DNA of 32,000 nucleotides from Candidatus Saccharimonadota bacterium (GTDB lineage Bacteria; Patescibacteriota; Patescibacteriia; 2-12-FULL-60-25), in the NCBI GenBank assembly GCA_963718585.1, contig OY970357.1:960001-992000 (forward strand), in the 5' to 3' direction. Below are positions 2,941-32,000 of this stretch, piece by piece (the first letter of the stretch is position 1; every line of letters begins with the position of its first letter). The notes beneath the pieces were generated by a model. That model had not been told where the DNA came from. It searched no databases and saw only the letters and a program-made list of their open reading frames with translations. Position numbers and translations under genes: made by a program.

Positions 2941-2943
2941 GGA

Positions 2944-5894: not shown

Positions 5895-5983
5895 TTCATG
5901 CTCACCTCCTTTCAATGTGGGTTACACGCGCCTGCGTGATGGGGAAAGGATACCAGACGGCCATGCACGCGTCGAGCGATCTG

Positions 5984-7104: not shown

Positions 7105-7109
7105 ACCGT

Positions 7110-13914: not shown

Positions 13915-13933
13915 ATGGTGGACCCTAACGGTC
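13915..13933. repeat. 19-bp direct repeat, copy 2 (within and abutting the genuine tRNA-Ala 3' end)
   Basis: Identical to 13719..13737. Confidence 0.85.
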
Positions 13934-13991
13934 TCGAACCGTTGACCTCTTCCATGCCATGGAAGCGCTCTACCAGCTGAGCTAAGGGCCC
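13916..13991 (-). tRNA. tRNA-Ala: tRNA-Ala, anticodon GGC, CCA encoded
   Basis: The reverse complement, GGGCCCTTAGCTCAGCTGGTAGAGCGCTTCCATGGCATGGAAGAGGTCAACGGTTCGAGACCGTTAGGGTCCACCA, folds by hand into a full cloverleaf. Acceptor stem is 7 bp with the G3:U70 Ala identity pair. D stem GCTC/GAGC. Anticodon stem CTTCC/GGAAG with loop AT-GGC-AT. T stem AACGG/CCGTT with loop TTCGAGA. Discriminator A73. Confidence 0.95.
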
Positions 13992-14031
13992 TCAGGATGT
14001 GGCGGCAGGATGCCACAGGCCTCTCGATGCG

Positions 14032-14841
14032 TCAACGGAGCTCTTGCATCGAAACGGCGTACGCCACACGATCGCGCACGACCTTTGCCTCCCGATCTCG
14101 ACGCTTCAATTCCGTGTGCAGGTCGCGCAGATGGCGGACCTGGACCAATGCATCCTCATCCACCGCCTCAGCCGGCATCGCATGCCAGCGCTCTGCTTCC
14201 CGTGTCGCTTCACGGATGGCAGACAAGAGATGTTCGATGTCCACATCAGGGATCGGTTCGATGTCTGGATGATCGAACACGCGTTCGCGAGAAGCGTTCT
14301 GACGAACGACCTCATCTCCCGTGAGCAACATCGCCGGATCAGAGATATCCCTCGAACGGATGACGACCGGCTCCGGCGTGGAAGCCGATACCGGGGGCTG
14401 GATCCCGCGCGTCCGGAGCTCCGACCGAAGGATCTCCGCTCGCACAGATGGATGATCGGCATGGACCGGACCGTCGTCGCTTCGCTCTTCCCACCGACCC
14501 AACTCCCGCGTCAATTCTCCGGCAGTCTTGAATGAGACATCGATCCGGCGGAGGGCGCGGCGCAGCGCATCCTGGGCGTCCCGGATCGCCGCAGCTTCCC
14601 GCGCGACATCGTCCGGTTCCATGTCATGGACGCGCGTCGCGAGATCTCGCAAACGGAGATCATACGCTTCGAATGCCTGCTCGATCTCCTCAGCAAGGGC
14701 CGCCTGATCGGCGGCGAGCATTTGACGCGCTGCATCCGGGTCCGCTTCGCACAACGTCACGAACGCCACGGGATCGAATGCTCGCGGACCGGTCGTGGGT
14801 CGACCGCTGAACCAGCGGCCAAGTCGTTGAAACCAAGACAT
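14032..14841 (-). CDS. Hypothetical acidic, Arg/Glu/Asp/Ala-rich, probably coiled-coil protein (269 aa)
   Basis: Longest ORF in this region (track 14032..14910). I prefer ATG 14841 (MSWFQRLGRWFSGRP...), which sits 7 nt downstream of a TGTTATACT extended -10 box. Overlapping plus-strand ORFs translate to low-quality sequence. No family recognised. The call rests on ORF length and promoter context only. Confidence 0.5.
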   Translation of the reverse strand: MSWFQRLGRWFSGRPTTGPRAFDPVAFVTLCEADPDAARQMLAADQAALAEEIEQAFEAYDLRLRDLATRVHDMEPDDVAREAAAIRDAQDALRRALRRIDVSFKTAGELTRELGRWEERSDDGPVHADHPSVRAEILRSELRTRGIQPPVSASTPEPVVIRSRDISDPAMLLTGDEVVRQNASRERVFDHPDIEPIPDVDIEHLLSAIREATREAERWHAMPAEAVDEDALVQVRHLRDLHTELKRRDREAKVVRDRVAYAVSMQELR

Positions 14842-14848
14842 TGTGGAG

Positions 14849-14857
14849 AGTATAACA
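14849..14857 (-). promoter_or_regulatory. Extended -10 promoter element TGTTATACT, 7 nt upstream of ATG 14841 (implies a leaderless or near-leaderless mRNA)
   Basis: Minus strand: ...GGCGTCAGGATGTTATACTCTCCACAATG. The same 9-mer occurs at 17434..17442. Confidence 0.5.
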
Positions 14858-14879
14858 TCCTGACGCCCATCTGATGATG

Positions 14880-14906
14880 GAAAAGGCTCCACATGGGAGC
14901 CTTTTC
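14880..14906. terminator. Bidirectional-looking rho-independent terminator downstream of the Wzy_C-TPR gene
   Basis: GAAAAGGCTCC-acatg-GGAGCCTTTTC: a GC core stem GGCTCC/GGAGCC flanked by an A-run and a T-run. It lies 21 nt after the TAA at 14927. Confidence 0.7.
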
Positions 14907-14926
14907 TCAAATATCACGATCGGTCC

Positions 14927-17395: not shown

Positions 17396-17433
17396 AAAAA
17401 GGTCTCGCGGGTGAGAAAATAGCTATGAAGCGG

Positions 17434-17442
17434 AGTATAACA
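17434..17442 (-). promoter_or_regulatory. Extended -10 promoter element TGTTATACT upstream of the Wzy_C-TPR gene
   Basis: Minus strand: ...GGGCGTTTGTGTTATACTCCGCTTCATAGC..., 38 nt upstream of ATG 17395, within the 92-nt gap after the giant gene. Confidence 0.5.
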
Positions 17443-17487
17443 CAAACGCCCTGCTGAGCAGAGCGTACGTGCAGATCCGCTCGGATC

Positions 17488-20400
17488 TTATGGCGTGGTC
17501 GAAGTCGTGCTTGTCGTTGAACCCGTCGAGCCGGAAGACGTGGTCGTGGAGGACCCAGGCGGCGGAGGTGCGACCGGATCGCCTGAAGTCGGGTCGATCT
17601 CCGTATAGGTATTGTCGGAATTGGTGAGGACCGTCCCGCTCGGCGTGGCCTCTGCCGTCCAGCTGAAGAGGACGTCGTGATTTTCCGCCGCAGCCAAGTT
17701 GATCGTGAATCCACTATCCGTCTGGTTCGAGATCCACCAGTCTCCGGCCTGACCGACCGGCGTCGCGAGGATCATCGGATAGGCTTGGATCGTATCGAAG
17801 CTGACCGTCACTTCCTGTGACCCTGCGAAGATCTTCGCAAATCCCTTCCGGATCACGGTCGAACCCGTCGAACCGGAGCCACTCGATGCGCCGGAAGCGG
17901 ATGCACCGTTCCATTCCACATGGACGTACGCGATGACTGATGTCACGGCCGTCCCCTGCATATCCTGCATCGCCACACCCACGACCGGACCCGGGCCTGT
18001 CGCCTTCATTGCAATGCCAGGTTGAGAGGACGGGGTCAGCATATCGCCCGCATGCACCGGCCCGTTCTCGTCAGACACCTTGGTCGGGACACGTCCCGAA
18101 AGGGCGATCGGATACGAGCTTGTCGCATTGTTGCCGGCGAGAAAGCCCGGGCGCGTCGAGACGATCCCCAAGATGTTCTGTTCATATGCGGAAGTCGATT
18201 TCTTTACGCCTTGCGGGAGGGTCGGATCCAACACGACGATGTCCCCTGGTTCCAATGTTTCACTCGACGGGAACATTTCCGCGAAGTCATAGGAGCCCGT
18301 GCCCCACCCGGCCGCGTTCGTTCGCATATAGTCTCCGAACAATCCGGAACTTCCATCGTAGAAGATATATTTATTGTATTGCAGATTCCCGCGATCGGAC
18401 GGGTAGAGCTTACCGCTGATTGCCAGGTCGCCGAGCGGCGAGACGGTCAGGATGTTCGTGTCCGTCGCATTGCTCGTCATGGCAAAGTAGGACGTCGTCG
18501 CAGACTGCATGTCCGCATACAGGTTGAACTGGCTTGTGATGACGCTCGAGGACGCACTGTCCCACGCGGATCCGCGGAAGCTGAAGAGCGGCGAGTCCAC
18601 GGTCGTGACCGTCGAGGTCGCGACGGTCGTCGACGCATTCGTGAGGTCGCCGATGAGGAGCGAACCCGTCTCATTCGAGATGAAGAGGTCGCCAGCCCAC
18701 CAATGCGGACTCACATAGACCATCATGGTGCCGGTCCCGGAAGAGAGCGGCTCCATGGCCATGCCGAGCACCATGCCCGGGCCTTTGGCCTTCACGGCCG
18801 ACCCATCCGTCCCCATCATCAGCTCATCGCCGATGCTGATCGAAGATGTCGTCGCATCCACCTTGGTCTCAAGTTGGCCCAAGAGACCGACGAGCGTCGC
18901 AGATGCATCATTCTCCAATTGACCCATACCCGTGACGACCGGACGCGCAGAGATGACGCCAAGCGTATATTTCCGCAGACTCTCATCGCCCAACGTCGCA
19001 GATGTCGCGCTCGTCGGATCGAGAGCCATGACATTCCCCGCACCATATGCCCCCTGATCTGACGTGAAATATTCCGCGTAGTCACCACCTGACCCGATCG
19101 TCCCGTTGTCGGCGTACAACTGCCCGTTACACCGGATCGAGACCGCGTCATCAAGATTTACAGTCGACGTCGCGAAGCCTGCGATCCTTCTATTCACGGA
19201 CGAGGTACCACCACAATTAGAGACCACGCGAAGGGCGCCGTAGGAAGAACTCGCATTCCCATAGATCGCGACCTCGTCATTGAACATTGCTCCCTGGGCG
19301 GTCAGCGATCCGATCGTCGAAATATCCCCGAAGCTCGTGATGTCCCCGCGGACGCTGAATGCACCCGTGTCAAGAGAGGAGAACTGCCCCGCACTTGCCT
19401 CGATGCCGCCCATCTCATAAATGGACAGGCTCGGATCCGATGAGTTCGCACTGATGCCGACGTAGACATACCGTCCGTCAACGTCGACGTCTGTAAGTGA
19501 TGAAATGCCACCATACGTCTCATCCGTCGTCTTGATCAATTTCGGATCCAGCGGCTGTGTGATGTCGTAGATCTTCATCACATTCGTATTGGTCCCGACG
19601 AAGAGGAGGTTCCCATGAGGGACCGCCGCATAGATGTTCGGGATGCCCACCGCCGTCGCAAAATGCGGACTTTGGGAGTTTGATATGTCAACGATAACAA
19701 GCTCGTTGTGGGAATTGTTGACCATATATGCATACCGTCCCTGGACATGATCAACCAATGCATTGGAAGGGAAGATAAGAAATTGGGTACCTACGATCTT
19801 CAAATTTTCTGGATCTGAGATATCAACGATATCAAGGACTCCGGTCCCGTTAGACACATAGGCATATCTCCCCTGGACATCCATTGAAGACCAGGTTCCG
19901 GAGCTTGGGGAGAGACCCGTATATGCCATGGGATGCTTCGGATCGGAGATATTGATCGGATAGATCTTATTGACATTCGTATTGATACCGATGAGCATCC
20001 GCCCATGGAACTGCATATAGCTCAGGGCACCTGTCCCATTCGCCGTCGAACTCAGGAGCTCCGGATTCGACGGATCAGAAATGTCATAGATATTGATGTA
20101 ATGATTGCAATCCGCCGCGACAAGCGTCCCTTGGACGGCCAAAGACGTCGGACTCACTCCACACGCCGTACTTGAAATGACCACGGGGTTGGTAGGATCG
20201 TGGACGTCGGCGATCTTGAGGACACCGTCTGACTGGGTTAGATAAACGAGATATCGTCCTGAGACCTTCAAACCTCGCACGAGCTGACCTGGTGATGAGA
20301 AAGCATTCCCATCATAGACGGTCGAGGCGTAGACATGCGTGAAGGTGTCATTGATCTTGATCTTCGATGCACCGATCCCTCCAGTAGCCTGGATCGATCC

Positions 20401-23400
20401 GCCGACATTCAATGCACCGTTCACGGCCAGATCGTTTTGGATATATCCATCGCCGTCGACTTGAAGCTGCCCGAGATCAGCGGAATGTGCGATAAGGCCA
20501 TTGACTTCTTCGCCATGGATATCATAGATCTCGAATCGAGGTTCTGCATTACCGACATACAGGTCGCGACCCTTTACGAAGATCGATTGAGGGGTGGCGC
20601 CAACCGTTTGGTTCCGACTGATCAAAATCGGATTTGATGGATCTTGGACGTCGATGACATCTACTTCTTTCACACCGGACCCATGGACCGTGACGTACGC
20701 ATATCGACCCGCCAAACTGATTCCCGCGGGATCAGCGGCAAATGTTATGAGTCCTGTCGTGGATGTAGTCGGGTTCGTCGGATCAGTGATGTCATACGAG
20801 ACAAATCGATGCGTACCGGACTCAATAACGTAAATGTGAGAACCTTCGACAGCTAAACCCTCCGCTCCAGACGTTCCATACAAGGCTTTCGTTGAAACCA
20901 ACGTCGGTCGTTCTGGATCTGAGATATCCACGACCAACAACTGTCCGTAGAAATTATCTCCGACGTAGAGATAGTTCCCCTGCGTGGTCATGTCCTTAAA
21001 TCGCACGGACGAACTGAAATTCGTAGACGTGACGAAGCTAGGCAACGCAGGATCGGTAACATCGAAAACGTACAGACTTCCTATACTTTGCCCCACATAC
21101 GCATAATGCCCCTTGATCTCGACGGAATCCGCTCCAGAGACCGAGGTGGTCGCAACCGTTTGAGGAGCATAGGGGTCACGAATATCAATGATGCGCAGAT
21201 CCCCTTCCGAAACGTCAGCGATATAGGCATACCCCGCGCTGATCCGCATCTTCTGCGGTGAGATGCCGGCATTCACCGATGTCACATACGTTGGATTTGC
21301 AGGGTCTCTGACATTGAAAATATCCAATTCATGGTTGCCGTTGCTCAGCGCGTAGGCGAAGTCACCGACCACCCGCACCGTGCGATAGTCATATCCTGTG
21401 TCCAAACCGGTCGTCCAGTTCCCAAGGCGAGTAAGTGTCGAACTCGTCTGGAGGATGTTGGAGATATCCCCCGCGACCGTCAGACTCTTTCCGATCCCGA
21501 CGGAGCCGAGCGTGGAGATCCCCCCACCGACGGAGATCCCGCCATTCACAGAAATGCCGTTTTGGAACGTTGCTTGGCCATCTACTTGCAACGTGCCGAC
21601 CTCCGCGGAATGCGCGGTGAGACTACTCACTTCCGTTCCTCCGATGGTGAAGATATCGATGCGTGCGACGGTCGCCGTCTCATCGGTACCGATGTAGAGA
21701 CGCCGCCCACTGACGGCCACAGACTGTGCACCGTTCCCCGCATACGTCGAGACGGTCGTGATCAACGTTGGCGAGGTATCCGAGTTGAGATCGACCACAT
21801 CGACTTCTTTCGCTCCTGACTGGTTGATACTGACGTATGCATACCGTCCTGAGACCGTGACATCGGTCGGAGCGCCATTGAGGGATGCGGTCCCCTTCAA
21901 AGAAGGCAATGCAGGATTGGAGATGCTGTAGACCGCGAGGGAGTTAGAGCTCGTCTCGGCGACATACACCCGTGAGCCGGCGATACTGATCGCCTTCCCC
22001 CCCGACGAACCTCCGAGAGCCGTCGTATGCGCAAGGGTGGGATTCTTCGGATCTCGGATATCGATCGTATCCAGATTTCCATTGAAATCATCGCTGACGT
22101 AGAGATACCCGCCTTGGACGACCATGTCCGTATAATGAATAGACGATAATACCGTTGATGTCGTGACGAGCAAAGGCCCGCTCGGTGAAGAGATGTCGAA
22201 GACATACAGCCCGTTCAAACTGGTGCCGACAAATGCGTATTTACCTTGCACGGCGACAGATAGGGCGCCTGTGACGCTCGACGTGGAGACCGTGACGGGC
22301 GCATACGGATTTTGCAGATCGACTACCCTGAGATCAGCCGCAGCGAACTCTGCGATATAAGCGAGTCCACCCTGGACCGTCATATGTGTCGGTTGAGACC
22401 CAAGGCTCAACGAGTTGACCAACGCGGGTGATGAGGCATTCTTTACATCAAAGATCTGAAGCTGGGCTGTTCCGTAGTTCATCGCATAGAGATAGTCCCC
22501 CGCCGCGGTCATATCCCGGAAATCATCCCCAGCGAACGCGCCTCGCGTATATCCGCCCAAATGAGTGCCTGTCGAGTCGGACTGTAGGATGTTCTGGAAA
22601 TTTCCGTCGACACCCACAGTCGATCCCCGGAGGTTCGAGAGTGAATCGTTATATGGATTGTAAAACCAATTGGGGTCAGAGCTCGAACAGTTCGTCCCGT
22701 CCTCGAGACAGGCTCGTTTCCCATCGATCGTGAAATCTTTCGTGAACTGCGCGTTTCCGGTCACATTCAACTTCCCGATCTGAGCCGATTGAGCATTGAG
22801 TCCGTTGGTATCGACACCATTGACATCTACGACAACCAGGCTGTTCGTTCCGTCATTCTTACAACCGGTCCCGGTATCAGATAAACCAACGTATGCATAT
22901 CTCCCGTTAACATCTACATCGATGACCCGATAATCACTGGAGTCAAAGACAGCGTCTTTCCCGCCCGGATAATCATGAAGAACCTCGAACGGATTCGTCG
23001 AGCTTGCCACATCATACACATGCAACGCACCACGCGGTCCAGAGCCATTGCAATATGCACTATCTCCCGTATACAGATACCGGCCGGCAATGGACCCGCG
23101 GACATATGTCGACTGATAGCCCGTTCCCGCACTCCCTAATGCGACGATATTCGTTGAGCTGGCGACATTCAAAATATAGTATGCTCCCGCTCCTTGTCCC
23201 GGCAATATATATGCCAAGTCGTCTTGGATCTGCACATCAAACCCGCGTTCAGAATCCGGAGCCGACCATGTTCCTGCGAGGATTGGGTTCGTGGGATCGC
23301 TGATATCCACGATCTGGAGGGTCGTACTGAACCCCGTGACATATGCACGATCCCCGGAGATGGTCACATCCCCATTGGTATCAAGACCGGTCAGATGACC

Positions 23401-26400
23401 GACAAGACTGAATGTAGACGTTGAGACATCGAAGATGGATAAGGCACTGGAGCCGAGCACGTAGACATAATGACCTTGCGCCGCGACGTATCGCGCGCTG
23501 ATCGAATTATCAGTCGTATCACCGACGACCGTGCTCGTCGTTGGATGATAGGGATCAGTGATATCCACCCCCATCACAGCACGACGGTCTCCGTAGGTGA
23601 AATAGGCGTGGTTTCCAAGCACCGCCATGTCGCCGAGCCCCTTGGACGTGGATGTCACCACCGTGTCCGACGTTGAGCTGACGGTCCCGTCGAGATCTGC
23701 ATGGAAGATCTGGAGCGTATTGCTCGCCGTCAGGACATACACATAACTGTTCTGGTATTGAACTTTGACCGGGGAACCATCTATGGTCGTTGACACGTTT
23801 GAGAACGTATCATTGGAGATGAGCGTGTTATTGATATCGCCCCCGAACTTCACGTCCACCGTACTCGTCACGGTCTCAAGCGTGCTAGATGCTCCATTAT
23901 AGGTCCAATACAACGCGCGCGGCGGACAATTCGTCTCATCTTTCAGACAGACGCTGACGCCACCGACCGTGAGGCCGAGACTATATTCTCCACGCGTCGC
24001 GGATGTCGCTCCGAGGAAGGTTGAAGTGCCGGATCCGTTCACGGTCAGGAGCTTGGTCGTTTTTATGTCATTCAGGAAGGTTGACGTCACGCTGGAGCCA
24101 GCCGTGAATGCGCCATCCGTATACAATCCGCCGCGACCGATCGTCGCACTCCCCCGGACCACGATATCCCCTCCGACATTCGCATCCCCATTGACGCCGA
24201 GCTGACCGATCTGCGCATTATGTGCGATGAGTCCGTTCGTCTCGATCCCCGTACCTAGGTCAATGACGTCGAAAGGAGTGGATCCATAGTTGATAGCATA
24301 GAGATACCGGCCATTCGCCGTGACCGTATAATACCCGTATGGGTTCGAAAAGGAATTTGCGATGACCGGTCGTGTCGAAGACGAGACATCAATGATGTCG
24401 ATCCCATGTCCGGACAGATTCCCATACAATGCCGCGTAGACATACCGTCCACTCGCATAGATATCGTCAGGAAATACTTGAGACGTCGTCACCTGACCGA
24501 CCACGCTCGGTGAAGATGTTGAGGAGATATCGATGACCGCGATCGTCCCAGACGTATAGTTGTCAACATATGCGAAATGTCCTTGGAGGGCCATGCTCCA
24601 AGCGCCAGGAGCGTCGCCGGTGTACTGATCCGTGTGGACCGAGGAGACCCACCGCATGTTGTTCGGATTCGAGACATCGAAGGTCTCCATCACATCCGAC
24701 CCCTGCGAGATCACATAGGCAAGACCGTTCCGGACGCGGATATCACGCGGCGTAGAGCTGACCGCGGTAGATGAAACGACCTGCATGCTTGCCGGATTGC
24801 TGATATCGACCGAATACAGCTTGTTCGTCGAATTATTGACGATGTAGGCATACCGACCCTCAACATCGATCGCCTGCAATCCGCCGGCAATACTGAGATC
24901 TCCGACCCGATAAGGGTTCGTTGGATCTGATACATCGATGGCTTGGAACATGGTCGCGCCAGCATTATTATCCTGGACGATGTACACATAGTTTCCATCG
25001 ACCTTGAACATATGCGGAACACAGGTACTACATCCGCCAAAGAAAGTATTAGAGATGACGGACGTCGACGATGGCTTTGAAATGTCGTAGATGATCAAGC
25101 GACCAGCGCCGGCGGTGAAGGCGAGATCCCCCTGGATCTGGATGCCGCGCTGAGTGCCATTCGAGGTGGAAACACTCCGCACGGTCGTAAAGGCCGTCGT
25201 ACTTGTCGGCAGGGCGTCTAAATGCCCTGTGACATCGATCGTTTGTCCCGATAAGGTCGGTGACAAGGTTCCATCCGCATTCGTCGTCCATAGGCATCCC
25301 GTGCCGTCAGCGGTACACACCCGCTGTCCGCGCACGGTCAGGTCATTCCCGATGGCGACATTTCCTCCGACCATGAGTCTATTCCCGATGGTCAGATCGC
25401 GATTGATATTCTGATCATCGACGCTCAGGTTCCCGATGTTCGCGGTCGAGATCTTCGCACCCTGCAGATCGATGACATAGAGACCGCTCGAGCCTGTACC
25501 GACGTAGGCATACTTTCCGGACACAGTGATATCCATCGGCGTCGTGCCCCCGGTCGATGTCGTTGTAAGCAGCGTCGGATTCGTCCGATCCGAAACATCC
25601 ACGATGGCGATCTTCCCGTTCCCTACGATGTACGCATAGTCGCCGGACACGACGATGTCTTTCCGTTGACCACTCCCTCCGGTGATCCCCGTCTTTGAGA
25701 CGACGAGCGTCGGGACCGTCGAGCTGGAGATATCAAAGATGTTCAACTGATCCGACCAATTCTCGACATACGCATATCGTCCATCGACATACACATGATT
25801 GGTGTCCACGGAGCTGAAGGTCGGTGTGCTCACGATCGTCGGGTTGAGCGGATCCGAGATGTCGACGACCTCAAAGTGCTTCCCACCGACCCCAAGGGCG
25901 AGATAGGCGTAGTCTCCCCGGATATCAAGACCATAGGCGTAGCTCCCCGAGAGCGTCGCGACGACCGTCGGACTTGCCGGGTCCGAGATGTCGATGACCT
26001 TCATGCCGTCTAAATAATTTGCAACATACGCATATGTGCCCTTGATCCGGATCTGATCGACTTGACGGCTCAGACCGACCGAGCCCATATTCACCGGATG
26101 CGCAGGATCCGAGATGTCGATGACTTTAAATCCATACGAGCTGGAGTGCTCACCTACATAGGCATAATTCCCCGCGACGGCGATCTGCTCAATATCCGTA
26201 AAGCCCGTGGACGTCCCGACAACCACGGGAAGAGCCGGGTTCGAAATGTCGATCGCATAGAAGTTCGTTCCTCCTGCGGCGTACAGGTATTTATTCTGGA
26301 CCGCCGTTCCATAGACCGACCCTGTCCCGTTCGGAATAAGATTAGCCACACCGAGTGGGTTGCTGGGACTATTGACGCTCAATGAACCACCAAGCAACAC

Positions 26401-29400
26401 GTTCTGAGTACTGGTTCCGGTCGTCAGATAATCGCCCGCGCCGTTGTACGTCCAGTCAGGCGACGCACTTGAACAATTCGTCCCGTCCTGGAGACAAACG
26501 GCCTGACCCTTCACCGTCAACCCACCGGCGAACGATGAGGTCACGGATCCGAGGGAGGCGAGCGACGGGACAGAGAAGGTCGAGGGAGTGAATGTGAAAG
26601 CCGTTCCGCCAAACTTTACGTTATCGAGGAAACCAGCATTGAGGCCTGAGGAAGCGCTCGGATCCTTCGCATACATCCATCGGAACGTATGTGCGCCGGG
26701 TCCGACAGAGCCGGTCACGGTCGTCCAGCTCACGAGGCCGCTGATCCGTGACGTATACCCGGCCGTGCGTGTGCAGGCGTCATTATCAAGGCAGAAAAGG
26801 AGATAATCGAAACCTGATTCTGAGCTGACCTGCCAATCGAAACTGTACGTCGTTGTCGCAGAAAACGCTTGCTGGGTTTCTAAGTATGAAGATTGGTTAT
26901 CCGTGATGGGCCCGCTCGTCGCGGACGCGAAACCATCGGTCGACGTGGTCGTGATCCGTCCCCAAGGGAGATTGCCACCCGTCGTCCACCCGCTCGGTGG
27001 GAACGTCGATCCTTCAAAACTCTCCTTTGACTGAGTCGTGACATATCCGTCGCCATAATGCGTGGGACCAGACCCGACCACGAGCTCCCCATTTGTATAC
27101 ACGCTGGATGCAGAACCGATGTTCCCTCCCACGAAGAGGTCATTCCCATTCAGACTGAACGCCGAATCCATGAATGAGGCAGATGAGGACGTCCCACCGA
27201 TCACCACGTTCGTGTTCGTACTGTAGCCGAAGTAGACATTGGATGTTCCGACGGTTCCGCCGGAAAGGTCGAAGTACGCGGCCGCTCCCGCGGTCGAGGT
27301 ATTCGCCGCACCGAGCACGAGGTCGGTCGTCGCGGTCGCGTTATGGACAAAATTACCCGTGGGACTGAAGGTCCAGTTGAGATCCGCCGTGCTGGTGCCT
27401 GAGGAACCGGATACGGTCTGACAATTCGTCCCGTCCGAAAGACACACATTCACATCTTTCACCGTCAGATCCCCCTCGAAATTCCACAAGGTCGTTGAAC
27501 TTGAGATGAAGGAAAATTTATCTTCTGACGTATTGAATGACACGTTATCGACATTCCCTGCGTTTCGGAACAATAAGTTGCTACTATCCGTCGAAAACAG
27601 CCACCGGAACGTATGTGTCCCAGCGGCGACCGTCCCGCTTACGCTCGCCCACTGTGTTTGACCGCTGATCCGATAGGTATACCCCGATGCACTTGTACAC
27701 GCATCGTTATCCAGACAAAAACTCAAGTAATCAAAGTTGGTCTCAGAACTGACTTCCCAGTCGAAACTGTATGTCGACGTCGCGGGGAAGGTCTTCTGAA
27801 CTTCCAAGTAGGTCGATTGATTGTTGTTGATGAAACTACTTGAGGCAGAGGCGATCCCATCTGTCGATGTCGCCGTCGTCCGTGCCCAGACCGCGTCGCC
27901 GCCCGTCGTCCAGTCGGAGCTCGGCGGGAACGTCGACCCTTCGAAACTCTCCGAGATCGTCACCGGGACCAAATGGGCTTCAGCGCTGGAAATATATCCA
28001 TTCCCGTAATGGGTCGATCCATTCCCAGCCACGAACTCTCCATTCGTATAGACACTGCTCGCAGATCCAATGTTCCCACCGACAAAGAGGTCATTCCCAT
28101 TTAAGGAGAATGCCGGATTCATAAAGCCGACGGTCGTGGATGATCCACCGATCACGACATTCGTATTCGTGCTGTAGCCGAAATACACGGTAGACGTTCC
28201 CGCCGTACCTCCGGAAAGGTCGAAGTAACCCGCCGCACCAGCCGTCGACGTGTTCGCGGCGCCAAGGACAATGTCCGTCGTCGCCGTCGCGTTGGAAACG
28301 TAATCACCTGTTCCGTTGTAGGTCCAGTTCAGGTCCGTCGTGCTTCCGCCTCCTCCGCCGGTACAGTTCGTCCCGTCCGCAAGACAGACGAGCTTCCCTC
28401 CGACGGTGAGCCGATTTGAGACTTCCGCATTCGTGGTCGACACGGCAAAGGCGAATGTCGATGTTGCCGTTCGTGATCCAGCGGTGATCGCCCCATCGGT
28501 ATAGATCCCTCCGATACCGGCACTTAGTGCACCGTTGACGGAGAAGTTTCCTGAGACCCACCCACTCCCATCAACGCGAAGCGATCCAAGCTCAGCATTT
28601 GCCGCAACGAGTCCGGACGTTTCCGTTCCGAGAATATCAACGATGGAAAGGCTGTTGGCCGCAGTATTCGAGATATACGCATACCGACCGGAGATGACGA
28701 TCCCCTTCGGGGTTGATGCGGTCGTTGTAGCCGCCAAATGGACCGGACTTCCCGGAACCGAGACATCAAGGACGTCCAATCCGCCATTCGACTGGGTGAT
28801 ATAAACATATCTTCCAGACACCGCGATCCCTTCCGGATAATCCGTATAATAGGTGCTTGAAGCGATGGTCGGTGAAGTGGGATCCGTGACTTTGATGATG
28901 TCGACATCATTATTCAAGAATCCCGCAACATAGGCATAAGCCCCTTGGACCGCGATCCCCTGCGGATTGGTCGTTGGGAGCAATACCGAACCAACGATGG
29001 ACGGAGACAGTGGATCGCTGATATCGATCACAGTGACATACGAAGTCCCTGAATTGATCGCGTAAAGATACTTCCCCTGGACCGCAAGTCCGATCGCTCC
29101 GCTCAACGTGACAGATGTTGCAACGGTTGGATTCAACGGATCCTTAATGTCAAAGATCTCGATCCTATTATTACCAGCGGCAAATGCGTAATTCCCCTGG
29201 ACCGTCAGATCTCCCGTCGCCGTGATGGTCGTAGAGGCAACATCTACGAGTGACGAGGGATTCGAGATGTCATACACGATCAGATGTGTCCCGCAGGTAC
29301 CTAGATTCGTCAGATACGCATACTTCCCGCGCACCGCAATGGATTTGGCATTACAATACGTATTCGCGGTAAGGATATTGATCGGTGTTATGGGATCCGT

Positions 29401-31977
29401 TGCATTGAAGACCTCCAGACCGCCGGAATTCGCGTCGATCGGCACGTAGACATACCGTCCGTCGACCGCGGCTCGTTGCGGTGTATTGATGAGGCCTGTC
29501 GTTGAGATCACACGCATGACCGTATCCGTCGCCATCGTATTGTCGATATCCGAATGAACGCGAACGGAAGCGGTGCTCGTCACGGGGGACAACGTATTCG
29601 TCGTTCCGTTGTATGACCAATTCGGTGTCGTAGATCCGCAGTTCGTCCCATCTGCAAGACACACGGATTGTCCACCGACGGTGGTGTTCGATGAGAGCGT
29701 CGCAGCGCTGGATACGACGAGATTGGTGGATGAGGCCGTACCGACGACCGTCAGATCTCCGCCGGTCGAGATCGAACCGACCGCATATATCCGATCTCCG
29801 GACGTGATCCCGTTACGGACGTAGAGATGCTGCGCGATATCCGCATCACCCAAGACACTCAACGAACCGAGATTCGCCGAATGGGCGATGAGTCCGTTGG
29901 TCTCGATCCCGGAGATGTCGATCACCGAGACGGTGTCGTCCCCCGTGTTCGCGACATAGAGATACCGTCCTTGGATGGTGATGCCATCGGGAGAAGTTCC
30001 GACCGTGATCGTGCTTACGACGACGGGATTCGTCGGATCCGCGAGATCGACCACAGAAACCGTTCCATCCCCCGAATTCGTGATATATGCATACCGTCCG
30101 CTCAAGGCGACTCGGGACGGGGTTGAACCAACAGCTACCGTCGCCGTCAGGACCGGATCCGTCGAGCTCGCGATATCGACCACGGCCAAAGTGCTGGAAC
30201 CGCTGTTGACGACATAGGCGTACTCACCGGAGTACGCGACATCCGTCGGAGCCGCGCCGCTCCCGAGGGACAACGTGCCAAGAACGGATGCATCCGTGGG
30301 ATCAGAACTCAGAATCATGAATGAATCGGATCCGTAACCCGTGACCAGGAGCTCGGGACCGTCTGCCGCAACCCCACGGGGGATCGTCCCACCACTGAAC
30401 GTCGTCGATGACGCGATGAAGGGTGCGCTTGGTTTGGAAATATCGACGACGTTGAGTTTATCACCATCAAGAGTGATATACGCGTACTGCCCCTGGATCG
30501 CGACACGTCGAGGATCCGTCATCCCAATGCCCGTAAGCACCGTCGGCGTCGAGGGGTCTGCAAGATCCATCGTTGCGATCGTTACGGCATTTTGGGCGGT
30601 GATGACCGCAACGCGCTCCGTGACGGCGATATCCGTGGTGCCGATCGACGAGTAGGTGAATGCCCCGAGCGCCTCCGGCTTCGACGGGTCGGTGATGTCG
30701 TAGGTCTGGATCGTATTTGTCGCGGCCAAGTAACCGAACGTTCCTTTCGGGACGAACTTCACTGGAAATGTCGCGGCCGCTGTGGTCGTCACGGTCGTGA
30801 ACGATTGTCCCGTCTCCAAGATGTTCTGGACGTTTCCGACGACAGTCAGTTTTGCGGCTGACGACGTCGCTGTGCCGATCACGACACGCGTGTCCGTGTT
30901 GTACCCAAAATAAGCGGTCGAGACACCCGTTGTGCCGCCGGACAGGTCGAAGTAGATCGGCGCGCCTGCCGTCGAGGTATCCGCCGCGCCAAGGACGACA
31001 TCCGTGGTCGCCGTCGCATTGTGCACGAAGTCCCCGGACGCATCATATGTCCAATTGAGGTCGAATCCCCCACTTGAGGCCGTGCAGTTCGTCCCGTCCG
31101 CAAGACAGACGAGCTGACCTTGGACCGTCAACGATGAACCCGATGCAGAAGTGAAGGCGAGTGTCGTCGCCGTCGCCTCGGTCGCGGTGAGGAAACTCGA
31201 TGTCAGATTGGTCACGACCCCATTCGTCGCGAACAGGTTCGTCGTTGTTGCAGATGTACCGGTTGCAAAGGTATAGGTCAAAGTCTGAAGATCTGCCGTT
31301 CCGGTCGATGTCAACCGGCTTCCCACAAGGACCCCCCCATATGCGTAGATCAGATCCGTCGTATTGTCTCCATTGTCTGTGATCGTTTGGAGTGTCGCGG
31401 TCGTCGCCGGCGCGCCGCCTGTGATCGCCGTCCCGTTGACGTAGAGATTCGTCGTCGAGACCGTGGTCGCCCCCAACCAACTCGATGTTGCGTTCGTAAA
31501 CACCGCGTTGGTCGATGAGACGGTCGTCGCAATGACGTTCGTCGACGTCACCGTCCCGACATTGAGCCCAAGCCATCGCAAGCTGGCCGAACCGAGCGAA
31601 TAGGTCAGATCCGCCACTGGCAAGACATCCGTGTTGATGTGCCCATTCAGCGCGATCAGATCAGACGCACCGGAACCCAAGGTCGTACTCCCCTGGATAT
31701 CGAGATTTCCGGTAGACGTGACGCTGCCATTCCGGGAAATACTGAACACATTGGTCGCCCCAGCGAATCCTTGAACGAGGAAGTCATTACTGTCCGACGT
31801 CCCATCCGTCTGTACGACGAGCGCGGTCCGGGTCGCGGCCGCGGCATCGGCGGTCGTTTGATGGACCGCAAAGAGGGATCCACCCGCGGACGTGATCGAA
31901 GATGACGCGTATTGGCCCTGCAACTGTTCTGCGTTGAATGCATTTGGGACGGACGAAAGACGCTTTCGGGGCGTCAT
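17488..31977 (-). CDS. Giant LVIVD-repeat surface/fibre protein, at least 4,829 aa (frame remains open upstream to the window edge at 32000)
   Basis: Single uninterrupted ORF in the track. Its parts are: a tail-fibre-like N-terminus; 8 blocks of 7 LVIVD-like blades; 8 VCLADGTNC loops; 2 beta-sandwich modules; 2 DYAEYF/YDFAEMF-type C-terminal modules; and an S/T-rich tail. Codons upstream of ATG 31977 (..TVGSDSE-M) contain no stop before nt 32000, so the true start may lie outside the window. Confidence 0.9.
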   Translation of the reverse strand: MTPRKRLSSVPNAFNAEQLQGQYASSSITSAGGSLFAVHQTTADAAAATRTALVVQTDGTSDSNDFLVQGFAGATNVFSISRNGSVTSTGNLDIQGSTTLGSGASDLIALNGHINTDVLPVADLTYSLGSASLRWLGLNVGTVTSTNVIATTVSSTNAVFTNATSSWLGATTVSTTNLYVNGTAITGGAPATTATLQTITDNGDNTTDLIYAYGGVLVGSRLTSTGTADLQTLTYTFATGTSATTTNLFATNGVVTNLTSSFLTATEATATTLAFTSASGSSLTVQGQLVCLADGTNCTASSGGFDLNWTYDASGDFVHNATATTDVVLGAADTSTAGAPIYFDLSGGTTGVSTAYFGYNTDTRVVIGTATSSAAKLTVVGNVQNILETGQSFTTVTTTAAATFPVKFVPKGTFGYLAATNTIQTYDITDPSKPEALGAFTYSSIGTTDIAVTERVAVITAQNAVTIATMDLADPSTPTVLTGIGMTDPRRVAIQGQYAYITLDGDKLNVVDISKPSAPFIASSTTFSGGTIPRGVAADGPELLVTGYGSDSFMILSSDPTDASVLGTLSLGSGAAPTDVAYSGEYAYVVNSGSSTLAVVDIASSTDPVLTATVAVGSTPSRVALSGRYAYITNSGDGTVSVVDLADPTNPVVVSTITVGTSPDGITIQGRYLYVANTGDDTVSVIDISGIETNGLIAHSANLGSLSVLGDADIAQHLYVRNGITSGDRIYAVGSISTGGDLTVVGTASSTNLVVSSAATLSSNTTVGGQSVCLADGTNCGSTTPNWSYNGTTNTLSPVTSTASVRVHSDIDNTMATDTVMRVISTTGLINTPQRAAVDGRYVYVPIDANSGGLEVFNATDPITPINILTANTYCNAKSIAVRGKYAYLTNLGTCGTHLIVYDISNPSSLVDVASTTITATGDLTVQGNYAFAAGNNRIEIFDIKDPLNPTVATSVTLSGAIGLAVQGKYLYAINSGTSYVTVIDISDPLSPSIVGSVLLPTTNPQGIAVQGAYAYVAGFLNNDVDIIKVTDPTSPTIASSTYYTDYPEGIAVSGRYVYITQSNGGLDVLDVSVPGSPVHLAATTTASTPKGIVISGRYAYISNTAANSLSIVDILGTETSGLVAANAELGSLRVDGSGWVSGNFSVNGALSAGIGGIYTDGAITAGSRTATSTFAFAVSTTNAEVSNRLTVGGKLVCLADGTNCTGGGGGSTTDLNWTYNGTGDYVSNATATTDIVLGAANTSTAGAAGYFDLSGGTAGTSTVYFGYSTNTNVVIGGSSTTVGFMNPAFSLNGNDLFVGGNIGSASSVYTNGEFVAGNGSTHYGNGYISSAEAHLVPVTISESFEGSTFPPSSDWTTGGDAVWARTTATSTDGIASASSSFINNNQSTYLEVQKTFPATSTYSFDWEVSSETNFDYLSFCLDNDACTSASGYTYRISGQTQWASVSGTVAAGTHTFRWLFSTDSSNLLFRNAGNVDNVSFNTSEDKFSFISSSTTLWNFEGDLTVKDVNVCLSDGTNCQTVSGSSGTSTADLNWTFSPTGNFVHNATATTDLVLGAANTSTAGAAAYFDLSGGTVGTSNVYFGYSTNTNVVIGGTSSSASFMDSAFSLNGNDLFVGGNIGSASSVYTNGELVVGSGPTHYGDGYVTTQSKESFEGSTFPPSGWTTGGNLPWGRITTTSTDGFASATSGPITDNQSSYLETQQAFSATTTYSFDWQVSSESGFDYLLFCLDNDACTRTAGYTSRISGLVSWTTVTGSVGPGAHTFRWMYAKDPSASSGLNAGFLDNVKFGGTAFTFTPSTFSVPSLASLGSVTSSFAGGLTVKGQAVCLQDGTNCSSASPDWTYNGAGDYLTTGTSTQNVLLGGSLSVNSPSNPLGVANLIPNGTGSVYGTAVQNKYLYAAGGTNFYAIDISNPALPVVVGTSTGFTDIEQIAVAGNYAYVGEHSSSYGFKVIDISDPAHPVNMGSVGLSRQVDQIRIKGTYAYVANYLDGMKVIDISDPASPTVVATLSGSYAYGLDIRGDYAYLALGVGGKHFEVVDISDPLNPTIVSTPTFSSVDTNHVYVDGRYAYVENWSDQLNIFDISSSTVPTLVVSKTGITGGSGQRKDIVVSGDYAYIVGNGKIAIVDVSDRTNPTLLTTTSTGGTTPMDITVSGKYAYVGTGSSGLYVIDLQGAKISTANIGNLSVDDQNINRDLTIGNRLMVGGNVAIGNDLTVRGQRVCTADGTGCLWTTNADGTLSPTLSGQTIDVTGHLDALPTSTTAFTTVRSVSTSNGTQRGIQIQGDLAFTAGAGRLIIYDISKPSSTSVISNTFFGGCSTCVPHMFKVDGNYVYIVQDNNAGATMFQAIDVSDPTNPYRVGDLSIAGGLQAIDVEGRYAYIVNNSTNKLYSVDISNPASMQVVSSTAVSSTPRDIRVRNGLAYVISQGSDVMETFDVSNPNNMRWVSSVHTDQYTGDAPGAWSMALQGHFAYVDNYTSGTIAVIDISSTSSPSVVGQVTTSQVFPDDIYASGRYVYAALYGNLSGHGIDIIDVSSSTRPVIANSFSNPYGYYTVTANGRYLYAINYGSTPFDVIDLGTGIETNGLIAHNAQIGQLGVNGDANVGGDIVVRGSATIGRGGLYTDGAFTAGSSVTSTFLNDIKTTKLLTVNGSGTSTFLGATSATRGEYSLGLTVGGVSVCLKDETNCPPRALYWTYNGASSTLETVTSTVDVKFGGDINNTLISNDTFSNVSTTIDGSPVKVQYQNSYVYVLTASNTLQIFHADLDGTVSSTSDTVVTSTSKGLGDMAVLGNHAYFTYGDRRAVMGVDITDPYHPTTSTVVGDTTDNSISARYVAAQGHYVYVLGSSALSIFDVSTSTFSLVGHLTGLDTNGDVTISGDRAYVTGFSTTLQIVDISDPTNPILAGTWSAPDSERGFDVQIQDDLAYILPGQGAGAYYILNVASSTNIVALGSAGTGYQSTYVRGSIAGRYLYTGDSAYCNGSGPRGALHVYDVASSTNPFEVLHDYPGGKDAVFDSSDYRVIDVDVNGRYAYVGLSDTGTGCKNDGTNSLVVVDVNGVDTNGLNAQSAQIGKLNVTGNAQFTKDFTIDGKRACLEDGTNCSSSDPNWFYNPYNDSLSNLRGSTVGVDGNFQNILQSDSTGTHLGGYTRGAFAGDDFRDMTAAGDYLYAMNYGTAQLQIFDVKNASSPALVNSLSLGSQPTHMTVQGGLAYIAEFAAADLRVVDLQNPYAPVTVSTSSVTGALSVAVQGKYAFVGTSLNGLYVFDISSPSGPLLVTTSTVLSSIHYTDMVVQGGYLYVSDDFNGNLDTIDIRDPKNPTLAHTTALGGSSGGKAISIAGSRVYVAETSSNSLAVYSISNPALPSLKGTASLNGAPTDVTVSGRYAYVSINQSGAKEVDVVDLNSDTSPTLITTVSTYAGNGAQSVAVSGRRLYIGTDETATVARIDIFTIGGTEVSSLTAHSAEVGTLQVDGQATFQNGISVNGGISVGGGISTLGSVGIGKSLTVAGDISNILQTSSTLTRLGNWTTGLDTGYDYRTVRVVGDFAYALSNGNHELDIFNVRDPANPTYVTSVNAGISPQKMRISAGYAYIADVSEGDLRIIDIRDPYAPQTVATTSVSGADSVEIKGHYAYVGQSIGSLYVFDVTDPALPSFVTSTNFSSSVRFKDMTTQGNYLYVGDNFYGQLLVVDISDPERPTLVSTKALYGTSGAEGLAVEGSHIYVIESGTHRFVSYDITDPTNPTTSTTGLITFAADPAGISLAGRYAYVTVHGSGVKEVDVIDVQDPSNPILISRNQTVGATPQSIFVKGRDLYVGNAEPRFEIYDIHGEEVNGLIAHSADLGQLQVDGDGYIQNDLAVNGALNVGGSIQATGGIGASKIKINDTFTHVYASTVYDGNAFSSPGQLVRGLKVSGRYLVYLTQSDGVLKIADVHDPTNPVVISSTACGVSPTSLAVQGTLVAADCNHYINIYDISDPSNPELLSSTANGTGALSYMQFHGRMLIGINTNVNKIYPINISDPKHPMAYTGLSPSSGTWSSMDVQGRYAYVSNGTGVLDIVDISDPENLKIVGTQFLIFPSNALVDHVQGRYAYMVNNSHNELVIVDISNSQSPHFATAVGIPNIYAAVPHGNLLFVGTNTNVMKIYDITQPLDPKLIKTTDETYGGISSLTDVDVDGRYVYVGISANSSDPSLSIYEMGGIEASAGQFSSLDTGAFSVRGDITSFGDISTIGSLTAQGAMFNDEVAIYGNASSSYGALRVVSNCGGTSSVNRRIAGFATSTVNLDDAVSIRCNGQLYADNGTIGSGGDYAEYFTSDQGAYGAGNVMALDPTSATSATLGDESLRKYTLGVISARPVVTGMGQLENDASATLVGLLGQLETKVDATTSSISIGDELMMGTDGSAVKAKGPGMVLGMAMEPLSSGTGTMMVYVSPHWWAGDLFISNETGSLLIGDLTNASTTVATSTVTTVDSPLFSFRGSAWDSASSSVITSQFNLYADMQSATTSYFAMTSNATDTNILTVSPLGDLAISGKLYPSDRGNLQYNKYIFYDGSSGLFGDYMRTNAAGWGTGSYDFAEMFPSSETLEPGDIVVLDPTLPQGVKKSTSAYEQNILGIVSTRPGFLAGNNATSSYPIALSGRVPTKVSDENGPVHAGDMLTPSSQPGIAMKATGPGPVVGVAMQDMQGTAVTSVIAYVHVEWNGASASGASSGSGSTGSTVIRKGFAKIFAGSQEVTVSFDTIQAYPMILATPVGQAGDWWISNQTDSGFTINLAAAENHDVLFSWTAEATPSGTVLTNSDNTYTEIDPTSGDPVAPPPPGSSTTTSSGSTGSTTSTTSTTP
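17650..17855 (-). other. Terminal small beta-sandwich-like domain, followed by an S/T/P-rich low-complexity tail (17491..17649)
   Basis: VIRKGFAKIFAGSQEVTVSFDTIQAYPMILATPVGQAGDWWISNQTDSGFTINLAAAENHDVLFSWTAEA, then ...PPPPGSSTTTSSGSTGSTTSTTSTTP. Any resemblance to H-type-lectin-like fibre tips is from memory only. Confidence 0.35.
17910..18297 (-). other. C-terminal module 2, a paralogue of module 1 (Peptidase_G2/IMC-like)
   Basis: GSYDFAEMFPSSETLEPGDIVVLDPTLPQGVKKSTSAYEQNILGIVSTRPGFLAGN...GDMLTPSSQPGIAMKATGPGPVVGVAMQDM...VIAYVHVEW. It is colinear with module 1. Confidence 0.5.
18690..19089 (-). other. C-terminal module 1 resembling the phage Peptidase_G2 / intramolecular-chaperone autoproteolytic domain
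   Basis: GGDYAEYFTSDQGAYGAGNVMALDP...LRKYTLGVISARPVVTG...GDELMMGTDGSAVKAKGPGMVLGMAMEP...MVYVSPHWW. As I recall the family pattern, it is (ADYAE[YM]FEW..., G.FV.L.G.KI..A, ILGVVSA.P...G). Not verified by search. Confidence 0.5.
19405..20340 (-). repeat. LVIVD-type beta-propeller module 8 of 8 (7 blades)
   Basis: Blade ends: ADVHDPTNP, YDISDPSNP, INISDPKHP, VDISDPENL, VDISNSQSP, YDITQPLDP, and exit YEMGGIEASAGQFSSLDTGAFSV. Confidence 0.65.
20515..21430 (-). repeat. LVIVD-type beta-propeller module 7 of 8 (7 blades)
   Basis: Blade ends: FNVRDPANP, IDIRDPYAP, FDVTDPALP, VDISDPERP, YDITDPTNP, IDVQDPSNP, and exit YDIHGEEVNGLIAHSADLGQLQV. Confidence 0.65.
21640..22560 (-). repeat. LVIVD-type beta-propeller module 6 of 8 (7 blades); colinear paralogue of module 7
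   Basis: Blade ends: FDVKNASSP, VDLQNPYAP, FDISSPSGP, IDIRDPKNP, YSISNPALP, VDLNSDTSP, and exit IDIFTIGGTEVSSLTAHSAEVGTLQV. Confidence 0.65.
22825..23790 (-). repeat. LVIVD-type beta-propeller module 5 of 8 (7 blades, most degenerate); boundaries approximate
   Basis: Blade ends: IFHADLDGT, VDITDPYHP, FDVSTSTFS, VDISDPTNP, LNVASSTNI, YDVASSTNP, and exit VDVNGVDTNGLNAQSAQIGKLNV. Confidence 0.55.
24255..25190 (-). repeat. LVIVD-type beta-propeller module 4 of 8 (7 blades); boundaries approximate
   Basis: Blade ends: YDISKPSST, IDVSDPTNP, VDISNPASM, FDVSNPNNM, IDISSTSSP, IDVSSSTRP, and exit IDLGTGIETNGLIAHNAQIGQLGV. Confidence 0.65.
25465..26360 (-). repeat. LVIVD-type beta-propeller module 3 of 8 (7 blades); boundaries approximate
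   Basis: Blade ends: IDISNPALP, IDISDPAHP, IDISDPASP, VDISDPLNP, FDISSSTVP, VDVSDRTNP, and exit IDLQGAKISTANIGNLSV. Confidence 0.65.
26500..28389 (-). repeat. In-frame tandem duplication inside the giant gene: two ~315-aa units (27448..28389 and 26500..27447)
   Basis: Each unit has the same parts in the same order: VCL(A/S)DGTNC; DLNWT(Y/F)...HNATATTD(I/L)VLGAANTSTAGAA.YFDLSGGT.GTS.VYFGYSTNTNVVIGG; an identical run FSLNGNDLFVGGNIGSASSVYTNGE; and ESFEGSTFPPS..WTTGG...FDY L.FCLDNDACT...HTFRW...DNV.F. The protein copies are highly similar, while the DNA copies have diverged. Confidence 0.85.
28635..29500 (-). repeat. LVIVD-type beta-propeller module 2 of 8 (7 blades); boundaries approximate
   Basis: Blade ends: FNATDPITP, YDISNPSSL, FDIKDPLNP, IDISDPLSP, IKVTDPTSP, LDVSVPGSP, and exit VDILGTETSGLVAANAELGSLRV (28561..28660). 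Confidence 0.65.
29911..30800 (-). repeat. LVIVD-type beta-propeller module 1 of 8 (7 blades); boundaries approximate
   Basis: Blade ends: YDITDPSKP, MDLADPSTP, VDISKPSAP, ILSSDPTDA, VDIASSTDP, VDLADPTNP, and exit IDISGIETNGLIAH (29881..29940). Confidence 0.65.
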
Positions 31978-32000
31978 TTCCGAATCCGAGCCGACGGTCA

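Follow-up and report, generated by a model that had tools for sequence, protein, structure and literature searches.

The 32,000-nt window analysed here (contig OY970357.1 of assembly GCA_963718585.1, positions 960,001 to 992,000) carries on its minus strand most of a giant gene, whose 4,967-aa product bears eight seven-bladed beta-propellers of the LVIVD family between two terminal modules with affinities to phage fibres. We consider it somewhat probable that this protein is a Sec-exported surface fibre of Candidatus Uhrbacteria, which belong to the candidate phyla radiation (CPR, or Patescibacteria), constructed on the plan of a phage tail fibre and serving as a modular adhesin. The fibre is probably a species-specific device for gripping a partner cell, for which we infer a role in host attachment, and by analogy with phage fibres the adhesin is probably trimeric. 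A preliminary description of this DNA had concentrated on the propellers and overlooked both termini, two extra non-propeller modules and a partner gene, which carry most of the mechanistic information.

The open reading frame (ORF; 17488..32000, minus strand) is free of stops from its own stop codon at 17488-17490 to base 32000, a run of at least 4,836 codons; by arithmetic from the composition of the window (57% GC), the probability that 4,836 stop-free codons arise by chance is about e^-179. The preliminary description had counted at least 4,829 codons without a stop, which is borne out, the frame continuing to the window edge. The first ATG of the ORF in the window is at 31977, from which the ORF was listed as 31977->17488 with 4,829 aa, and the bases upstream of it read ..ACC GTC GGC TCG GAT TCG GAA ATG (TVGSDSE-M). 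This apparent start methionine is an internal, conserved residue of the motif E-M-T-P-R-K-R, and the listing as a complete, ATG-started ORF is misleading. Homologs have the same 'GVTVGSDSEMTPRKR' string about 140-195 residues into the protein, preceded by a signal peptide; because the frame is open to the edge and this string is internal in the homologs, we place the start of the gene beyond base 32000. An unnamed database protein of 4,967 aa (P0362, recorded at NCBI and ENA on a contig of 1,084,458 bp) is identical to the window ORF over residues 139-4967. The window holds residues 132-4967 of this protein, the first 131 codons, which include the signal peptide, lying past base 32000; the N-terminus beyond this base was taken from the database protein and not from window DNA.

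The first 138 residues of the database protein hold a classic signal peptide (MKNTLPTSQVLRNLKHRLGYGLLCLLSLVLITATPASA, with cleavage before ANG; its end is also written ...LLCLLSLVLITATPASA before ANG), equivalents of which are found in homologs. The sole hydrophobic stretch of the whole protein is at residues 18-40. Extension past base 32000 by way of this database protein, a check of the kind that the preliminary description had proposed, yields the full length and a signal peptide just outside the window, with no further hydrophobic segment, in agreement with the extracellular location that it had predicted. Threonine, serine and glycine make up 34% of the protein, of which about 400 N-terminal and 640 C-terminal aa lie outside the propeller region. 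The gene measures 14.9 kb, or about 1.4% of the 1.08-Mb contig. A metagenomic gene so long and internally repetitive might be a repeat-driven chimera or collapse, but we regard an assembly artefact as extremely improbable: repeats within the DNA do not exceed 75-80% identity, the frame runs unbroken for 14.5 kb, the identical protein stands on the 1.08-Mb contig, an independent Logan contig matches window positions 13947-23121 (9.2 kb) at 100% identity, and homologous multi-propeller genes are present in other genomes.

The C-terminal module (C-module; 17491..19341, minus strand) consists of a short, periodic-strand stalk, Peptidase_G2-like domain a (18685..19110, minus strand; D-Y-A-E-Y-F at nt 19066-19083), a beta domain, Peptidase_G2-like domain b (17905..18315, minus strand; D-F-A-E-M-F at nt 18271-18288), a beta-sandwich and a Ser/Thr/Pro tail. 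The Pfam model Peptidase_G2 (PF11962), which represents the 'IMC autoproteolytic cleavage domain' found in the pre-neck appendage of phi29, matches two stretches of the last 647 residues with E=2.2e-7 and 31 bits (cut-off 25), and the same model is precomputed on many C-module homologs. Domains a and b are 31% identical to each other (E=4e-15), and both alignments begin exactly at D-[YF]-A-E. Across 53 family members, the columns of this motif either do not vary or are conserved to at least 90%. An AlphaFold2 model of the C-module, built on an alignment of 52 homologs, reached a predicted local distance difference test score (pLDDT) of 80 with four confident domains. The best PDB entry in a fold search, and the only one below 1e-3, was 3suc, the pre-mature form of phi29 gp12 (E=8.7e-5); 78 predicted viral structures also matched, among them tail-fibre and intramolecular-chaperone proteins and models named pre-neck appendage protein, the last with template modelling scores of up to 0.68; the global score is low because the query has several domains. 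In tblastn searches, the G2-type C-terminal domain matched virion proteins of PA5oct-like jumbo phages. The last beta-sandwich was considered as an H-type lectin, and its match to 2ccv was too weak (E=0.3) to keep that assignment.

The closest characterised counterpart of this module is the C-terminal domain of gp12 (PF11962; PDB 3SUC, 3GQ7), which is also beta-stranded and begins at a D-F-A-E-type motif. In phi29, this domain acts as an auto-chaperone that drives folding of the trimer and is removed afterwards (PMC3357383, PMC4690869), by a cut at 691/692 that leaves the mature virion protein ending at residue 691 (PMC6542822). An hhalign comparison placed YDFAEMFPS...GIVSTRPGFLAG of domain b on gp12 residues 691-743, 'SDFAEYFES...GVISETAGFVLG', with YDFAEMFPS on 691-699 and the D-F-A-E motif on 691-695. 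The self-cleavage site of gp12 is the bond between S691 and D692 in S691-D692-F-A-E695. Unlike gp12, the protein described here is cellular, six times longer and equipped with a signal peptide, and it has propellers where gp12 has a pectate-lyase-like beta-helix; cleavage and trimer formation are proposed here by analogy.

The part of the N-terminal module (N-module) that lies in the window (31108..31977, minus strand) begins at E-M-T-P-R-K-R..VP.AFNAEQLQG and includes a stretch that resembles cyanophage tail fibres. Alignment with homologs shows the E-M-T-P-R-K-R motif preceded by a signal peptide and an 'INYQGKL' domain, and the module is 41-53% identical to those of other Uhrbacteria. Nothing in Pfam, NCBIfam, PHROGs or PDB sequences matched the N-module or the linkers. 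By tblastn, the part ..SISRNGSVTSTGNLDIQG...DLTYSLGSASLRWLGLNVG of the N-module matched cyanomyophage tail fibres and a Pelagibacter-phage baseplate protein at 42-48% identity over 50-71 aa, with E-values of about 1e-4 (P-HM2 tail fibre, 42% over 71 aa, E=2e-4). At the level of sequence, then, both ends of the scaffold have phage-fibre affinities and the stalk linkers do not. Such similarity at both ends, with Peptidase_G2/gp12-like domains at one of them, would be expected if the gene encoded a virion part, that is, the tail fibre of a phage or prophage residing in the chromosome. We think this very unlikely, as no phage genes occur in the 17-kb flank, where the neighbours are cellular, the locus recurs with the same gene order across dozens of species of Uhrbacteria, a Sec signal peptide is present in the product, and PHROGs yielded no structural-fibre family.

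Between these modules lie the propellers. The Pfam model LVIVD (PF08309) matches the protein with E=7e-183 and 592 bits (cut-off 20.2) in 22 individually significant stretches; the tandem repeats are about 42 aa long and score above the gathering threshold of the family hidden Markov model (HMM). This profile search, which the preliminary description had suggested, upholds its assignment to the LVIVD family. The same description had reported 56 blade-end motifs in eight blocks of seven. Taken literally, its regular expression has 23 matches, and it could never have reached 56 because by its own account eight seventh blades lack the motif. A blade HMM built from these 23 blades and iterated on the protein recovered 54 blades in eight clusters of 6, 7, 7, 7, 6, 7, 7 and 7, and the two remaining blades, at residues ~524-574 and 2903-2962 (residues of blades and propellers are numbered on the window ORF), are divergent. 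All eight blocks, including propellers 1 and 5, align end to end at 24-43% protein identity. From the 54 HMM blades, the two divergent ones and the full-register alignment we conclude that there are 8 x 7 = 56 blades; the total and the eight blocks of seven are thus retained, and the claim of 56 strict motifs is not.

All eight propellers are encoded on the minus strand. Propeller 1 (29911..30771; residues 403-689) has six HMM blades and one divergent blade, and it is followed by propeller 2 (28633..29484; residues 832-1115), propeller 3 (25465..26322; residues 1886-2171) and propeller 4 (24256..25149; residues 2277-2574), each with seven HMM blades. Propeller 5 (22822..23775; residues 2735-3052), again with six HMM blades and a divergent one, is the most divergent of the series. 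Seven HMM blades are also present in propeller 6 (21652..22527; residues 3151-3442), which is 43% identical to propeller 7, in propeller 7 itself (20518..21393; residues 3529-3820), the block with a predicted structure, and in propeller 8 (19423..20277; residues 3901-4185). AlphaFold2 was run on residues 3440-3905, which contain propeller 7, using an alignment that combined the eight blocks with 50 homologs from outside. The core of the model has pLDDT>90 and 27-28 strands, and the best PDB match of the model in Foldseek was the seven-bladed WD40 propeller of beta-TrCP (E=3e-14, rmsd 2.7 A, ~312 columns). These predictions, in which propeller 7 closes at seven blades as the preliminary description had expected, support the view that the repeats fold as closed seven-bladed propellers, directly for the one block of eight that was modelled and by register alignment for the other seven.

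The seventh blade of every propeller enters an exit connector, or a variant of it, in place of D-P-x-x-P. Six of the eight connectors match G-x-[ED]-x-[NS]-[GS]-L-x-A-x-x-A-x-x-G-x-L-x-V, and those after propellers 3 and 8 depart from this pattern but can still be recognised (QGAKISTANIGNLSV and GGIEASAGQFSSLDTGAFSV). On the minus strand, the first connector (GIETNGLIAHSANLGSLSV), which follows propeller 1, is at 29842..29910, those after propellers 2-5 are at 28561-28629, 25408-25464, 24181-24249 and 22750-22818, and those after propellers 6-8 are at 21571-21639, 20446-20514 and 19342-19410. The dedicated connector after every seventh blade that the preliminary description had noticed is therefore present in all eight cases, and it was found in 0 of 120 generic LVIVD proteins. 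The suggestion in the same description that the connectors might be trimeric fits with the phage-type C-terminal chaperone domains.

The linkers between propellers are 80-170 aa long and mutually homologous; besides the connector, each contains a segment rich in Gly, Asn, Ser and Thr, an entry segment and, as a rule, a V-C-L-x-D-G-T-N-C knot. The linker after propeller 7 has short strands every six residues, predicted by AlphaFold2 at low confidence as a monomer. Nearly all cysteines belong to CX6C pairs (V-C-L-x-D-G-T-N-C), which recur at an equivalent position from one linker to the next, for example at 31087-31113, 29641-29667 and 28363-28389. If the fibre is trimeric, these pairs would make six-cysteine rings, recalling the cysteine annulus of the P22 tailspike (PMC3357383).

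The propellers had been described as consecutive, which does not hold between propellers 2 and 3: these are separated by two blade-free super-repeats of 315 aa that are 62% identical (26497..28389, minus strand; residues 1197-1510 and 1511-1827). Each contains a CX6C knot, a stalk segment and an unannotated domain of about 150 aa, named modA (27508-27960, minus strand) and modB (26578-27027, minus strand), with the pattern ESFEGSTFPP..W.TGG...FDW.VSSE..FDYL.FCLDNDAC...H.FRW. No match to modA or modB was found in Pfam, NCBIfam or PDB sequences. A modA/modB profile found 8,926 representative proteins (4,047 at E<=1e-10) in a library of 1.84 billion proteins, the domain often being in tandem with up to 30 copies per protein, and in six modA-type library proteins no Pfam model covered it. 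Judged by sequence, modA and modB look like a widespread unannotated repeat domain. A likeness of modA to MAM or choice-of-anchor-J domains is conceivable.

The scaffold, with different heads, recurs in one lineage. A search with a 648-aa C-module query returned 122 homologous proteins (33-58% identity; the longest 1127 aa), nearly all from Candidatus Uhrbacteria or Patescibacteria, and giant members were found via genome loci and the representative library. These relatives, the 1.08-Mb contig and the six T4SS_pilin genes described below agree with the reduced CPR-type genome that the preliminary description had suspected. The C-module occurs at 157 places in species-representative genomes, in ORFs of 0.6-3.8 kaa (thousand amino acids), some of which have no LVIVD blades. 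By precomputed Pfam annotation, other homologs bear Kelch, DUF5011 or YadA-type heads or S74 domains, and the source of one homolog gives it the name FG-GAP repeat protein. The LVIVD-bearing relatives have their blades in units of seven, with at least six units (L004, truncated by its contig), five (L002), four, two or one, and they have the exit connector, which the 120 generic LVIVD proteins of other phyla lack. The strict 8 x 7 architecture, for which the preliminary description knew of no described counterpart, is not unique and is the largest member seen of an n x 7 series in Uhrbacteria. Members of this family share a conserved locus that combines a signal peptide, the N-module motif, two D-x-A-E domains and a downstream gene for a protein with 13 transmembrane segments and a tetratricopeptide repeat (TPR) domain.

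Within this series the heads diverge most. Relative to the closest full homolog, identity is 41-66% in the C-module domains, 45% in the N-module, 39-52% in the stalk and 30-36% in the propellers; the propellers have no 1:1 orthology, and several of them have the same foreign propeller as best match. An ORF of ~3.8 kaa on MGEH01000030.1 (Candidatus Uhrbacteria RIFCSPHIGHO2_12_FULL_60_25; L002) shares the N-module, stalk linkers, connector, C-module, downstream TPR gene and seven-bladed LVIVD propellers, and differs in having five propellers (30-36% identical, no 1:1 orthology) and no modA or modB, against eight propellers here and zero, one, two, four or at least six in others. Dozens of third-party annotation (TPA) records of metagenome-assembled genomes (MAGs) titled 'uncultured Gammaproteobacteria bacterium' also carry the locus of fibre, TPR membrane protein and YchF (L005, L009, L013, L016, L021 and others), and these record titles are probably wrong taxonomically.

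A conserved locus, mostly in single copy per genome and beside housekeeping genes, that encodes a secreted, Ser/Thr-rich protein, highly variable across species as S-layer proteins often are, might also suggest a protein that coats the cell, as a structural part of the envelope or in the manner of an S-layer; the TPR membrane protein would then assemble or anchor it, and host-specific adhesion would play no part. LVIVD repeats were indeed first described in archaeal cell-surface proteins (PMC2447325). We judge a coat protein to be unlikely, since Pfam and NCBIfam reveal neither an S-layer homology (SLH) domain nor any other domain known to anchor S-layers or form their lattice, though CPR-specific domains outside these families are possible; in addition, lengths of 0.6-5 kaa and interchangeable heads are hard to reconcile with the unit of a lattice, and fibre-type termini favour an elongated appendage.

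Directly downstream of the fibre gene lies the candidate partner gene (14927..17395, minus strand), which encodes 822 aa with ~13 transmembrane segments and a C-terminal TPR domain. The next same-strand gene encodes a homolog of this protein at 58 out of 78 loci, and at eight further loci the homolog lies no more than 6.6 kb away; YchF often follows the pair of fibre and TPR membrane protein. From hydropathy, with the basic N-terminus inside, the TPR domain probably faces outside. A 68-aa loop with 'HPLFGSGPGTW' has a possible likeness to the 'hPLFGSGPGTW' loop motif of O-antigen-ligase-type proteins; an identification of the partner as O-antigen-ligase (Wzy_C)-like was set aside, as Pfam and NCBIfam see TPR only. 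The 92-nt gap between the two genes contains a terminator-like hairpin (17446..17466, minus strand; 9 pairs, 6 of them G-C, with a weak T-tract, from a consensus scan) 22 nt past the stop of the giant gene, which may modulate read-through between the fibre and partner genes.

Several observations weigh against a phage-type fibre with a membrane partner. The hhalign match to gp12 has a probability of 77% over 51 columns, and the residue before D-x-A-E, Ser in gp12, is Tyr in copy b and Gly in copy a. Here the G2-like domain is tandem-duplicated and followed by a beta-sandwich and a Ser/Thr/Pro tail, unlike any characterised auto-chaperone known to us, and the C-terminus could instead anchor the protein permanently, as a base or embedded in the wall. 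A phage search with a stalk linker gave no homolog, the linkers match no Pfam family, the structural model covers one propeller of eight, we know of no ligand for LVIVD propellers, and in the partner Pfam and NCBIfam recognise TPR repeats only, its membrane domain matching no family.

Much of this can be accommodated by a monomeric surface protein of the beads-on-a-string kind, in which the G2-like domains are degenerate, non-cleaving wall or basal folds and the linkers are flexible spacers. We hold such a protein to be a credible, if rather improbable, explanation. Propeller 7 folds alone in the monomer model, the serine at which gp12 is cut has been replaced, the linkers match neither phage proteins nor Pfam families, and the extra domains and Ser/Thr/Pro-rich tail after the G2-like domains resemble the wall-spanning tails of Gram-positive proteins. 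It is harder to explain on these terms why D-x-A-E is (nearly) invariant in 53 homologs and retained in both copies, or why both termini resemble phage fibres; moreover, the linkers are better conserved across species than the propellers, which would be unexpected of passive spacers.

If the protein is instead a modular fibre of phage type, its assembly might proceed as follows. After export, three chains would be zipped together from their C-terminal chaperone domains, by analogy with phi29 gp12, K1F endosialidase and T5 pb1, and the linkers would then form a three-stranded beta stalk that displays the propellers at eight nodes, three per node if the fibre is trimeric. The chaperone domains would possibly cut themselves off at D-x-A-E, again by analogy. 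The N-module would keep the fibre attached to the cell, perhaps by way of the partner's extracytoplasmic TPR domain, though the partner could alternatively glycosylate the Ser/Thr-rich fibre, and the fast-evolving propellers and extra modules would bind surface structures of the host or partner cell. In its most complete form, this scenario describes a phage-fibre scaffold that Uhrbacteria, and perhaps further CPR lineages, would have turned into a cellular host-recognition organelle: a self-assembling, self-cleaving trimer from a single conserved chromosomal locus, with heads swapped and multiplied among species in the manner of phage host-range cassettes, 24 propellers per trimer, and an anchoring or glycosylating partner. 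We put this forward tentatively, as a possibility that is doubtful in its entirety.

Other known systems share some of these features. Generic LVIVD proteins from KSB1, Krumholzibacteria, Chloroflexi and WOR-3 have the same repeat family and seven-blade unit (27-33% identity), but, in a search with a 466-aa query for which the longest protein returned was 814 aa, they are typically ~700-aa proteins with 14-blade double propellers that directly abut and T9SS or FlgD-Ig tails; they differ in having no stalk, no exit connector, a different sorting signal and no phage-type termini. The giant RCC1 multi-propeller proteins of Oscillospiraceae (bioRxiv 10.1101/2023.11.21.568195) and the giant surface proteins of the CPR predator Vampirococcus (PMC8080830), for which binding of hosts or prey has been proposed, are likewise very large extracellular proteins of repeated seven-bladed propellers or interaction domains. 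Their domains are RCC1 or WD40 rather than LVIVD, neither phage-fibre termini nor a conserved partner gene has been reported for them, and the resemblance is one of analogy and not homology. Peptidase_S74-type chaperones (K1F endosialidase, T5 pb1) and trimeric autotransporter adhesins share the principle of trimeric beta fibres nucleated at the C-terminus, but the chaperone fold differs, and the protein described here has no S74 domain. Searches of Pfam and NCBIfam with the whole window protein and with its C-terminal 647 aa found no YadA-type beta-barrel anchor either, which sets it apart from the trimeric autotransporters.

The remaining neighbours of the fibre gene in the 17-kb flank include genes for YchF, a GalU-type nucleotidyltransferase (NTP transferase), an ABC-F protein, a solute-binding protein and type IV secretion system (T4SS) pilins. 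Six pilin genes stand in tandem on the minus strand (4618-5058, 5042-5461, 5502-5915, 5984-6370, 6382-7218 and 7110-7682), each ending in a PF18895 T4SS_pilin domain, and the two largest are extended at the N-terminus by a stretch rich in Cys. Arrays of this kind are typical of Patescibacteria. The type IV secretion system of these bacteria was recently compared with the conjugation machinery of monoderms (PMC12102498). The gene for a GT2 glycosyltransferase (2194-2940, minus strand) lies 3 nt downstream of that for a 540-aa polytopic membrane protein (2944-4566, minus strand) that matches no family; together, this pair (2194-4566) could be a lipid-linked-sugar synthase and a membrane glycosyltransferase, perhaps relevant to glycosylation of the Ser/Thr-rich fibre. 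The sole RNA gene found in the window by ARAGORN and Rfam is a tRNA-Ala with anticodon GGC (13916-13991, minus strand). Two further minus-strand ORFs, at 14032-14910 (292 aa) and 1127-2050 (307 aa), have no Pfam or NCBIfam match; for the former site, Logan annotates a product of 245 aa.

The individual parts of this system are already known, namely LVIVD propellers (PMC2447325), intramolecular chaperones of phage type, giant CPR surface proteins and multi-propeller giants, and the sequence itself is already public, although unnamed. Our literature searches found no description of this combination of parts, of propellers in an n x 7 series borne by a scaffold of gp12 type, or of a conserved Uhrbacteria locus for a fibre and a TPR membrane protein, and none of the same-locus homologs in Uhrbacteria is named or described in the literature searched. 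LVIVD propellers, which had no known function, gain a defined structural context, and a widespread, unannotated repeat domain of ~150 aa is exposed alongside them. The locus also provides several handles, including a predicted self-cleavage motif, a candidate membrane partner, and separable propeller heads that could serve as ligand probes.

We know of no account of how CPR bacteria beyond the cultured Saccharibacteria recognise and hold their hosts. A locus that is fixed in position and hypervariable in its binding heads has the pattern expected of a host-range determinant; if the propellers bind the host surface, the locus would therefore be such a determinant and, if this is true, it would predict which hosts an uncultured CPR bacterium can attach to.

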